Source of the DNA: a virus
Length of the DNA stretch: 30,956 bases
UHGV virus genome: UHGV-0133295
Strand: one strand, 5' to 3'
Part shown: positions 24,001 through 27,000 of the stretch, in pieces
Layout: each line of letters begins with the position of its first letter
Position numbering within the stretch: the first letter of the stretch is position 1
Program-made: the position numbers

Positions 24001-27000
24001 AGCATTAATTAAAAAAGGCTTCCAGCTTGAAGGCTTTAATACGGTTTTCACTTCTTAATAAAAGGAATAATAATAAATGATTCTAGGTAATGATTACGTT
24101 GATTTAGCCCCGCTTTTCCAGGCACACAGCACTAGAAACTATCTGCTCTCTACCCTTGATTTTACGGATTCTGTAGGGGTTACATCTCATAAAGTAGCTG
24201 TTTCCCAGCTTGTCGAAAGCAACGAATCTCTGTTCAACAAAGAAACCTCTCGTTTCTCTTCTGAACACAATGTTACTAAGCGAGAACAAGGTAAAGAATG
24301 GCTGATTGAAATCCCGTATTTTCTTCGTGAAGATGTGATCCGTCCTTCTGATGTTCAAGGCAAACGTAAGCCAGGCACTGATTTTCAGGAAACACTCACT
24401 GATATCTATGCGGAATATATCGCTAAACACAATGTTGCATTCCAGCGTACTAAAGAGAGCGTGTTGGCGGCTTCTTTGTTCTCTGGCAAAACTTACACGC
24501 CTAAAACTGATGATGTGTTAATTGAGTGGGGCAAGCTGTTTAATGTGACACCTATGAAAGCCACTGTGACCGCTTCCAGCACTGACACCACGAAGATTTT
24601 TAAAGAATTTGATCAGATTGCTACGAATATTATCGACAGAGCACAAAGCCAGGCGTCAGCGGTAGAGCGTATTGTTGTTTTCTGTAAGCCGGAAGCCTTC
24701 TCTGCAATTCGATTCTCTGCGGGTATGGCAAACGCATTCCAGTATGTAAGCCCACTGGAAGAGGGGAACGTTGTGTATCAGCGTCGTGACCTGCTGCCAG
24801 GGGTGACAGCGTTCACTATTCCAGGAACTAACATTGATGTTGTTAAACTGGTAGATCCGCTACACCTTGCACATATGACCGCAGACGCTGTAGCTGTGCC
24901 TAAATTCGCTAAAGGCTCTAACGTATATCAGAACATCTACGGGGCTGCTTCCAGCACCTTTGAACTGATTAATGCCACTCCTACTGAGGTGTACAGCTAT
25001 AGCTATGAATCTTCTCGTGGTGATGCTGTTAACGTTGTTACAGAGAATAGCCAGATGGTTGTAAACCACGGTGTAGGCTTCTCCGTTCAAATCACTGTTA
25101 AATAATATTTTAACGTGTAATAGAGGCGTGGCGTGAATAACACGCTTCGCCTTTTTTTATTTATTTTTTTAAATTTTGAGAGGTGATTAAAATATGGAAG
25201 TGATTTTGAAATCAAAAAATGGTGTACACGTACATTTAGATGCTAATGATTCTAGAGGCTTGTTAAATCTGAAATATCTATGTTCTCTCTTGGATGTTCC
25301 CTATGAAGGCGTAAAAGCCCGTATGTTCAGATTAAACGAGAGTATTGATCAGGCTCTACACCATTTCTTAAGCAAAGAAGGTGGTAAGAATGATTAATAA
25401 GGGGATTTTAAATGTTAGAAATTAACACTTCTAAAATTAAGAACACAGTAACATTTAGTGTAGATAAAGACAGCTTAAAAAAAGCGAAAGACTCTATTAC
25501 AGGCTTAAAGGAATTCGCAGAAAACATCAAGCCAGCTAAATTAAGATTTGATAGCGTCACTAAAGGCTATAAGAAAGCACAAAGTGAAGTAGACAAGATT
25601 GCTCAACAGAAAGCGAAAAACGAAAAACAGAATCAAAGAGCACAAGCTGCCGCAGCAAGAGCACAGGCAAGGCAACAGCAACAAATAGCAGCACGTAAAG
25701 AGAAAGCAGAATTAAAACTCCTTGATGTGTCAAGCTCTATCAGTGCAATGCACCGCCTCTCTGTAGCGGAACAATACAAAGCTATTGCACAGGCTAGAGA
25801 GATAGCAAAACAATATGAGCAAGGGGCTATCTCGCTTGCACGTATGAATAGCCAGATGAAACGCCTACAACAGCAACAACGTAAGATTAATGGCAACAGA
25901 AAAACTCAATTAGCCCCCGTTAAGGGAGGAGGATCAGGGAATTCCGCCACTATGGGCGCTCTGTTATTTGGAGGCGCTACGGCGGCTGCTGGCGTGATGG
26001 CTGCAAGCAAAACCGCCGAGTTTATGGCTAATAGCTTCGCTAACGCAGAGACCCAAGGGGAGCTAATTCAACGTGCGAAGCTGGGCGGTGTAGACGTTAA
26101 CCAGATGTATAATATTACAGAATGGGCGTATAAAAACGGCGTTGACTCTATGATGGGTGATCAAGGGGCTAGGAAATACCTGGATCAGATGAAAGATGTT
26201 AGGGAACGTGCCGCAAAATCCTACAGTGAAGCTGAATTAGTGAAAGACAAGAAAACCGGAAAATCTGAATGGAAAGGCGGTGATAACGCTATTAATGAAC
26301 TTCTAAACATCGGAGTTATTAACAAAAGCGACCTTAAAAAATTTGCTGATAATCCAGCCGGATTAATTTCTAAGGCTGTTAATGGAATGATGAAAAAAGG
26401 GTTTTCAGACTCCCAAATTGGACAACGTTTAGAAGACCTGGGCGATGATTTGATGCTTACATCAAAATATTGGCAACGTTCCGTTAAAGATGTACAAGAA
26501 AGTATTAATCAGCAAAAAGCCTCTGGAAAATGGCTAACAGAAACACAGCAAGACTCTATTGTTAAATTCAGAGAACTAAACAGACAGCTTTCACAGCTTT
26601 CTGATGCAAGGCAAGTAGCATTTGTAGACGGCTTTATGAAATCTCTTGATCCAAAAGTAACGGAAGAGTTTATGAAAAACCTTTCTAATCTCACTCCGTA
26701 TTTTACGAAGCTGGGAGAAGCTACAGGAAGTCTCTTTGAAGCTATTATGAAGATTGTAAACTGGTTTAATCGTAATGATGATAAGACAGATGCTATTCAG
26801 AAAAATATGGGAGATGCACCGCCATTAAGCAATGAAGGAATGAAACAGAATCTTTCTAATCTCGTTCCTGATCAATATAAAGGCGCTGGCACTGCAACAA
26901 CTACACCTGATAATAGTCATTCTCTCTTTAACACTATTAAGGGATTGCTTTTCGATGATAATGCTTCTTCTGTGTCAGATGTAAAAATGTCAGTCAGCGA

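Follow-up and report, generated by a model that had tools for sequence, protein, structure and literature searches.

Phage satellites influence the course of phage epidemics, the transfer of genes, and resistance to phages, and in Escherichia coli the P4-like satellites, the PICIs (phage-inducible chromosomal islands), and the capsid-forming PICIs (cf-PICIs) use temperate helpers. The P4-like satellites of phage P2 are integrative elements of E. coli that carry the cos site of the helper and the capsid decoration protein Psu, and P4 uses Sid to change the size of the P2 capsid but is not known to encode capsid or tail proteins of its own. A cf-PICI has a complete module for head and packaging (capsid, portal, protease, connectors, and small terminase/HNH), is not known to have tail genes, and depends on a temperate helper. 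The PICI-like element (PLE) of Vibrio cholerae is a satellite of the virulent myophage ICP1 that has an integrase and its own replicon and interferes with its helper; it takes the ICP1 coat and resizes it via the external scaffold TcaP, uses a serine recombinase, and is not known to have a capsid, tape-measure, or tube-initiator gene. The capsids made by PLE are small (PMC10002752), and the Streptomyces satellites MulchMansion and MiniFlayer are described as encoding encapsidation proteins while still needing a helper (PMC10690885). The DNA considered here is the virus genome UHGV-0133295, a stretch of 30,956 nucleotides analyzed as a whole (hereafter, the window), in which positions 17180–29486 form an integrative element of 12,307 bp at the tRNA-Thr gene thrW, with a major capsid protein gene at 24077–25105 on the plus strand. 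The Stephanstirmvirinae are phi92-/phAPEC8-like virulent myophages of ~150 kb, and sequence comparisons indicate that this element is probably a satellite of such phages, belonging to a compact family spread across Enterobacterales, that would build its own shell.

The first-pass annotation of the window had proposed a lone gpE-like major capsid gene outside any complete head-assembly operon, and both of the checks that it put forward, a profile comparison with Pfam PF03864 and a structure model compared with lambda gpE, gave positive results. The 342-aa open reading frame (ORF) is present at exactly 24077–25105, starts with ATG, and has an AAGGA ribosome-binding site ~10 nt 5' of the start codon. 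Pfam PF03864 (Phage_cap_E) matches it with an E value of 2.8e-16 (59.9 bits, cutoff 22.9) in a nearly complete alignment of residues 14–341 with profile positions 9–329 of 329, and PHROG 29, 'major head protein', matches it as well (E 4.9e-17). The phi92 capsid protein gp124 is the best solved structure for a capsid-family profile built from 22 homologues, over its full length and with an E value of 2.9e-19. AlphaFold2 gave a model of moderate quality (pLDDT 61.7, pTM 0.61), with low confidence in the N-arm and the E-loop, as is usual for monomer models; against the PDB, it matched only HK97-fold capsid proteins (probability 1.00, E values down to 1.3e-12), including those of PhiTE, Bas63, and Sf14, the ICP1 coat, and lambda gpE. 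One of the best of these fold matches is 8g1r, a small-capsid entry of PLE that contains the ICP1 coat. The Pfam, PHROG, and PDB fold matches are all to capsid proteins, rather than the lack of a capsid profile hit and the non-HK97 fold that the annotation had named as speaking against its call. As judged from the profiles and the model, the product is an intact and probably functional HK97-fold major capsid protein of the PF03864 family.

The protein resembles the phi92 gp124 and lambda gpE family in its full-length profile match, in the HK97 fold, and in its length class (342 aa here and 333–341 aa in that family). The term 'gpE-like' is sound for family and fold, but the nearest relative is gp124 of the phi92-like myophages and not lambda gpE itself. 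A further likeness is found in the small cement gene placed directly 5' of the capsid gene in lambda D-E and in phi92 gp123-gp124, as is the case here with a probable beta-tulip protein. Unlike phi92 gp124 and lambda gpE, the capsid protein is encoded in a 12-kb chromosomal element without portal, protease, scaffold, or terminase. The Justusliebigvirus capsid protein is 21% identical to that of the element and colinear with it over the full length, and the identity to any phage capsid in the phage collection is only ~21–26%, with the Stephanstirmvirinae at 21–24% and ~98 kb Pseudomonas phages at up to 26%. The element in strain APEC O1 encodes an identical capsid protein.

As the first-pass annotation had held, the capsid gene has no portal, protease, and scaffold set among its neighbors, and none is present anywhere inside the element. 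Pfam and PHROG scans, which covered the ORFs of 56–611 aa at 21265–29380, plus 21065–21235, and included the flanking ORFs, found no portal, protease, scaffold, terminase, sheath, or tube protein, and every ORF of the element longer than 135 aa is accounted for. The gene is thus 'lone' in having no head operon around it, but not in the sense of standing by itself, since a probable cement gene lies 5' of it and homologues of a tape-measure and a tube-initiator gene lie 3' of it. The cement candidate is a 120-aa protein encoded directly before the capsid gene (23696–24058, plus strand), whose model resembles the beta-tulip decoration proteins in a fold comparison, the signal being weak but consistent. 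Its likeness to the counterparts phi92 gp123 and lambda gpD consists only of position and this weak fold signal; no sequence match to the phage decoration protein, the PDB, or Pfam was obtained, and hhalign gave an insignificant result. On the basis of the model, it is probably the cement/decoration partner of the capsid protein.

The two genes on the 3' side have closer ties to the phages. The tape-measure homologue (25412–27247, plus strand; 611 aa) matches PHROG 16051 with an E value of 9.5e-54 and phi92 gp134 (659 aa) with an E value of 4.9e-37, it is 34–38% identical to the tape-measure proteins of Stephanstirmvirinae, and the first 87 nt of its gene are 87% identical to phage PaulScherrer. 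The tail-tube initiator (27281–27964, plus strand; 227 aa) is a Dit-like protein (Pfam Dit_like, E 2.9e-29) that is 55% identical to the 'tail tube initiator' of PaulScherrer and matches phi92 gp135 with an E value of 1.2e-68, and its gene contains nucleotide patches that are 77–81% identical to Stephanstirmvirinae. In the phages, the genes are ordered as decoration, capsid, head-completion, sheath, tube, chaperone genes, tape measure, and tube initiator, and the order in the element is that of the phages minus the middle genes, that is, cement-like, capsid, tape measure, and tube initiator. When every protein of the element was compared by tblastn with the whole PaulScherrer genome, only the capsid, the tape measure, and the tube initiator matched. 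Pairwise dN/dS values are 0.10–0.14 for the capsid protein, 0.11–0.20 for the 120-aa protein, 0.09–0.22 for the tape measure, and 0.04–0.11 for the tube initiator.

A further link to the same phages is found in non-coding DNA. In a search of the left arm of the element against 2.3 Gb of phage DNA, positions 18310–18355 (minus strand) matched ~48 Stephanstirmvirinae genomes with 95.7% identity over 46 bp (E 4e-10), and 18316–18355 are identical to phi92 357–318 at 40/40 bp. Since the phi92 annotation places a 343-bp direct terminal repeat (DTR) at 1–343 and 148270–148612, the 40-bp match spans the inner boundary of the DTR, which is the physical right end of the genome; in the element, the phage end falls at 18329/18330, inside the core TTGCGAGAGGTGCT/TAACGCGATTTT (the slash marks the end). 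This 27-bp core does not vary between phi92, Klebsiella phage phi1_175008, and Citrobacter phage Tr1, and the DNA that flanks the copy in the element is unrelated to the phage. In none of 114 related loci does the core occur more than once; its orientation relative to the capsid gene is constant, and it lies ~5.3–6.0 kb upstream of that gene. The loci that have it are 28 of the E. coli type and, with the core in a diverged form, the more distant elements L116 and L117, the capsids of which are 55–56% identical to the one described here, and the site is 98–100% conserved even in E. coli elements with a capsid identity of 72–74%. Because the sequence sits at the annotated phage genome end, it is taken as a candidate terminase recognition and cleavage (pac/ter) site that would mimic that of the helper. 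In three otherwise similar E. coli-type elements (L009, L052, and L053), only the distal part of the site, equivalent to 18341–18383 of the window, is kept and the invariant core is lost; these elements may be packaging-defective or may use another signal. A 127-aa ORF at 18307–18690 overlaps the site and is probably not a gene, since in relatives it is conserved no further than the site itself.

The element also appears to have its own replication module. A winged-helix Rep-like protein of the replication initiator/helicase-loader type is encoded at 21292–21981 on the plus strand, with an alternative GTG start at 21265; it matches PHROG replication-initiation families (E 5.8e-9) and Pfam HTH_36, and it is 27% identical over 71 aa to the phage protein muut_154. 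At 19329–19632 (plus strand), ~8 copies of a 21–22-bp repeat form an iteron array of two clusters with AT-rich flanks (repeat families D2, D3, D4, and D6), which is a probable origin of replication. The iteron type co-varies with the Rep type across elements, each Rep variant having its own iteron set at the same location (e.g., L018 5473–5606 and L010 5385–5547); the Rep-like gene and its iterons are exchanged as one cassette, and the integrase is also exchanged as a module. These patterns argue for a Rep-like protein acting with cognate iterons as a replicon belonging to the element. The array in the window also holds single copies of other iteron types, such as ACCCCCACAGAATTCTGTTA at ~19371, which suggests past cassette exchange.

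That the capsid gene lies in a small integrative element, as first annotated, is borne out by the att repeats and the integrase around it. The left repeat, attL (17155–17179, plus strand), is the 3' end of thrW, with thrW homology from ~17131, and its sequence is that of the thrW 3' end of APEC O1; it is also the attR of a P22-like prophage on the left. The right repeat, attR (29462–29486, plus strand), is a partial repeat of the thrW 3' end, and the two copies of this direct repeat (D7) are identical at 23/25 positions. The tyrosine integrase is encoded at 28046–29380 on the minus strand and matches Pfam Phage_integrase, DUF6538, a SAM-like domain, and PHROG 1. In the metagenome contig L043, an intact tRNA-Thr(CGU) directly precedes the same element, the contig being 99.99% identical over 13.8 kb; a tRNA scan of the window found no tRNA, and an Rfam scan of the element gave no hits. 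At 38.6%, the GC content of the element matches that of the phage (37.5%), and the host flank has 50.9%.

The element has the att sites and the integrase that are generally expected of a satellite and lacks a full set of virion and packaging genes, and it is satellite-like but outside the known satellite families by their own tests; Pfam and PHROG scans of the element found no markers of these families. A close likeness is to the cf-PICIs of Enterobacterales, which are integrative, encode their own HK97-fold capsid protein rather than remodeling the coat of the helper, and depend on helper tails (background in PMC10085698), as is likewise proposed for this element. Unlike a cf-PICI, the element has no packaging gene, its head genes are limited to those for the capsid and cement-like proteins, a tape measure and a tube initiator are also encoded, and the genome end that it copies is that of a virulent myophage. 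It resembles PLE in having an integrase, its own replicon, and, as proposed, a large virulent myophage as helper, and the ICP1 coat is structurally close to its capsid protein. Unlike PLE, it has a tyrosine integrase and its own capsid protein, and no sequence relationship to PLE genes was seen, although no search aimed at TcaP was made. With P4, it shares the nature of an integrative E. coli element with a helper packaging site, a candidate here, and a decoration-type protein, a probable one here; none of the P4 markers sid, psu, delta, alpha primase, and epsilon was found in the Pfam and PHROG scans of its proteins. It differs from MulchMansion and MiniFlayer in the host phylum and in the gene repertoire. 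The first-pass annotation had likened the locus to capsid-remodeling satellites. The satellite context finds support in the att repeats, the integrase, the Rep-iteron replicon, the phage genome-end copy, and the same minimal gene set across genera, but 'capsid-remodeling' is a poor label, since the element encodes its own shell protein and not a remodeling factor for the coat of the helper.

It can be proposed that infection by the helper would bring about excision of the element and its replication from its own origin through Rep and the iterons. The terminase of the helper would then recognize the mimic site and cut it at 18329/18330, and packaging would run rightwards; given the orientation of the site, the DNA joined to the phage-type end would begin at 18330 and include, in rightward order, the origin, the genes, and the att junction. 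The capsid and cement proteins of the element would be assembled on the helper portal into shells, probably of low triangulation number (T), and tails made by the helper would be nucleated on the tape measure and the tube initiator of the element; interference with the helper would be a likely by-product. The phage phi92 holds 148.6 kb of DNA in a T=13 head (PMC13450770), and by simple scaling from these values a T=3 shell would take ~16 kb and a T=4 shell ~25 kb, so that one or two element genomes would fit.

A literature search that combined satellites with phi92, Stephanstirmvirinae, Vequintavirinae, thrW, and vat found, within its incomplete coverage, no description of this element or of satellites of these phages. 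The wider proposal, which stands evenly poised, is that these elements are the first recognized satellite family on ~150 kb phi92/phAPEC8-type myophages, in E. coli and other Enterobacterales, and the first type with its own capsid, cement, tape measure, and tube initiator, which would take the portal, terminase, sheath, tube, and baseplate from the helper and would enter packaging through an exact copy of the terminal-repeat end.

Several points weigh against a satellite of phi92-like phages. The induction, excision, packaging, and transfer of the element are predictions made in silico, and its assembly on helper parts is an assumption, since the capsid protein is only ~21% identical to that of the putative helper and portal, scaffold, and protease are not encoded. 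The need for a tape measure of its own is unexplained and is the weakest point of the mechanism; because a protein of 611 aa in place of one of 659 aa would make the tail hardly any shorter, the protein is just as likely to act in DNA delivery or in interference with the helper. Moreover, the tube initiator is absent from some lineages, and only the right DTR boundary of phi92 is copied in the element, the left one is not. The site is also missing in some E. coli variants, in the Klebsiella elements L004 and L005, and in the Citrobacter-type, Serratia, and Sodalis elements, and a comparison of L004 with the phage collection gave no helper-end copy. Furthermore, scans of virus contigs and metagenomes gave only integrated, colinear copies and no circular or permuted forms: the metagenome contigs of ~12.6 kb are either bounded by att on both sides or arranged colinearly with the integrated form, with terminal overlap in none of them, and the IMG/VR matches look like prophage-region calls rather than packaged forms, since they have isolate-type genome IDs and are all longer than the element.

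The alternative that survives best, although it is unlikely, is that the element is an anti-phage interference island, in which divergent structural homologues and a decoy end site would poison or divert the assembly and packaging of phi92-like phages, so that the bacterial clone is protected and the element is not transferred in particles. The N-terminus of the tape measure and the tube initiator are close to the phage versions, as would be expected for binding to phage partners, and the copy of the terminase target could serve as a decoy. In addition, PLE and PICI-borne defenses block helper assembly (PMC11364771; PMC10002752). However, pure defense would need neither a cement and capsid pair under purifying selection, nor an autonomous Rep-iteron replicon exchanged in the form of a cassette, nor a single copy of the site whose position and orientation with respect to the genes are fixed. 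The PADLOC models found no known defense system in the element, only weak helix-turn-helix (HTH) matches. Interference and transfer are, moreover, not mutually exclusive.

It is considerably more doubtful that the element, while a satellite, exploits another or a further helper (e.g., the neighboring P22-like prophage or a temperate phage not yet described) and that its similarities to phi92-type phages reflect shared ancestry rather than current dependence. In the window, the P22-like prophage directly adjoins the element. Likewise, the capsid protein is no closer to the Stephanstirmvirinae (21–24%) than to the ~98 kb Pseudomonas phages (up to 26%), and the phi92-type site is lacking in many family members. 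However, in APEC O1 and L043, the element directly follows an intact thrW and no P22-like prophage is present; the capsid gene is thus part of the 12.3-kb element, not of the prophage. The P22 coat and portal also belong to other protein families, and the P22-like prophage was rejected as the helper, being absent from other carriers and having unrelated head proteins. Moreover, all of the nucleotide-level matches are to Stephanstirmvirinae, including the 40/40-bp site, the 87% match at the start of the tape-measure gene, the 77–81% patches in the tube-initiator gene, and a 96% match in an intergenic region.

The distribution of the family bears on both the satellite proposal and its remaining rival. 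Homologues of the capsid protein with 38–96% identity occur in Escherichia, Citrobacter, Klebsiella, Enterobacter, Cronobacter, Kluyvera, Buttiauxella, Scandinavium, Dryocola, Serratia, and Sodalis, and those on long contigs or with an organism label are all chromosomal and come from Enterobacterales or from gut and food metagenomes. The Bacillota label of the metagenome bin L034 is taken as a binning error, because the contig carries E. coli-type sequence. The minimal gene set and its order persist in at least eight genera and are kept in Klebsiella, Serratia, and Sodalis elements at a capsid identity of 38–55%; in these three genera, the order is a gene of ~70 aa, one of ~120 aa, the capsid, one of ~62 aa, a tape-measure-like gene of ~620 aa, and the integrase. 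Among 5426 complete E. coli genomes, 735 carry the element or parts of it, often interrupted by insertion sequences (IS), and 269 of these have it at nearly its full length; relatives are abundant in Klebsiella. The least probable reading is that a temperate or ancestral phage related to phi92 has been decaying into this element, with the capsid gene as a leftover that has no current role: it is favored by the left arm of ~3.6 kb, which is gene-poor and has one small annotated ORF, by the many IS-interrupted copies, and by the fact that the element alone cannot make a virion, but it is disfavored because random decay would not repeatedly leave the same subset of genes, and against it stand the gene set and order kept at 38–96% capsid identity in at least eight genera, the dN/dS values of 0.04–0.22 for all four structural genes, the two att repeats and the integrase, all of them intact, and the 40-bp non-coding copy of the phage end perfectly conserved amid DNA unrelated to the phage. 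The decay, relaxed selection, and lineage-specific remnants by which a cryptic or defective prophage is recognized are not what the element displays.

The remaining genes of the element are small and mostly have no functional name. The left arm (17180–20856) contains a single small conserved ORF of 52 aa (17784–17942, plus strand), which encodes a basic protein, is the only annotated gene of this arm in the APEC O1 annotation, and is kept at 96–100% in E. coli elements and at 78% in Citrobacter-type elements. Klebsiella, Serratia, and Sodalis relatives have a short integrase-like gene (183–205 aa) at the left end, and those of Klebsiella also have a Dam methylase. A sigma70-like promoter detected by a consensus scan (20717–20745) precedes the early operon, the first gene of which (20857–21045, plus strand) encodes a 62-aa protein found in most family members with 31–100% identity. 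The next gene (21065–21235, plus strand) encodes a probable small DNA-binding regulator of 56 aa, whose homologue in Justusliebigvirus muut has 55 aa (46% identity, E 7e-16). It is followed by an intergenic region and gene start (21248–21296, plus strand) in common with the Phapecoctavirus Mt1B1_P17 (95.9% over 49 bp), which is possibly a shared regulatory or translation-initiation signal. The whole stretch of 21065–21296, with equivalents at L038 1513–1790 and L037 1501–1549, is common to the element and some Stephanstirmvirinae; PaulScherrer does not have it.

Downstream of the Rep-like gene lie an ORF of 92 aa (21998–22276, plus strand), conserved in most elements, and a core ORF of 135 aa (22406–22813, plus strand), present in nearly all family members. 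The latter has 387 homologue clusters, none with a functional name, and the named organisms among the matches listed are all Enterobacterales. An ORF of 121 aa follows (22788–23153, plus strand), which has no significant family match and for which a role as scaffold is speculation only. Directly 5' of the structural operon, the region 23183–23418 (plus strand) comprises a promoter at 23183–23211, a leader of ~200 nt, and an intrinsic terminator at 23394–23418. In a consensus scan, the promoter is strong and sigma70-like (TTGACA, a 17-nt spacer, TAATAT, and an extended TG). This layout recalls lambda PR'-tR' and suggests, by analogy, antitermination control of the capsid and tail genes or, alternatively, a small RNA. 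The structural operon begins with an ORF of 70 aa (23487–23699, plus strand) conserved at 42–100%, and an ORF of 67 aa (25194–25397, plus strand) lies between the capsid and tape-measure genes; it does not resemble the small ORF that lies upstream of the tape-measure gene in the phage, and Klebsiella, Serratia, and Sodalis elements have syntenic small ORFs of 59–64 aa at its position. An NCBIfam search returned nothing informative.

The window holds three mobile elements in tandem at thrW, with other mobile DNA on either side of the element described here. From position 1 to ~17130, it consists of the right arm of the P22-like prophage, which is integrated at thrW in tandem with the element and has its portal, scaffold, and P22-type coat genes at 41–4357, on the other side of the att site from the element, as well as ejection proteins and a K1-specific endosialidase tailspike (12950–15895). 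Heptanucleotide repeats (TCAAGAC) at 16038–16107 lie upstream of a neuO-like hexapeptide acetyltransferase ORF (16420–16755), and this region shares 99.8% identity with the locus of phage CUS-3 for phase-variable O-acetylation of the K1 capsule by an acetyltransferase; since the listed ORF starts well downstream of the repeats, this copy may be off phase or truncated. Beyond the right end of the element lie the N-terminus of a truncated P4-type integrase (29640–29978, 112 aa) and a MarR-family regulator on the minus strand (30559–30936), both of which match the start of the vat autotransporter island that lies behind the element in APEC O1.

The phi92-/phAPEC8-type phages are under study for the therapy of encapsulated pathogens and for biocontrol (PMC13450770, PMC10269720, PMC10844046), and, if the satellite proposal is true, carriage of the element could predict phage failure or unexpected gene transfer. 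The element would also represent a new answer to the capsid-size problem, in which the shell protein is replaced instead of that of the helper being rescaffolded, and it would be the first satellite to supply a tape measure, offering a handle on the roles of this protein beyond tail length. Moreover, the invariant 27-bp core provides a testable candidate for the packaging site of a whole phage subfamily.

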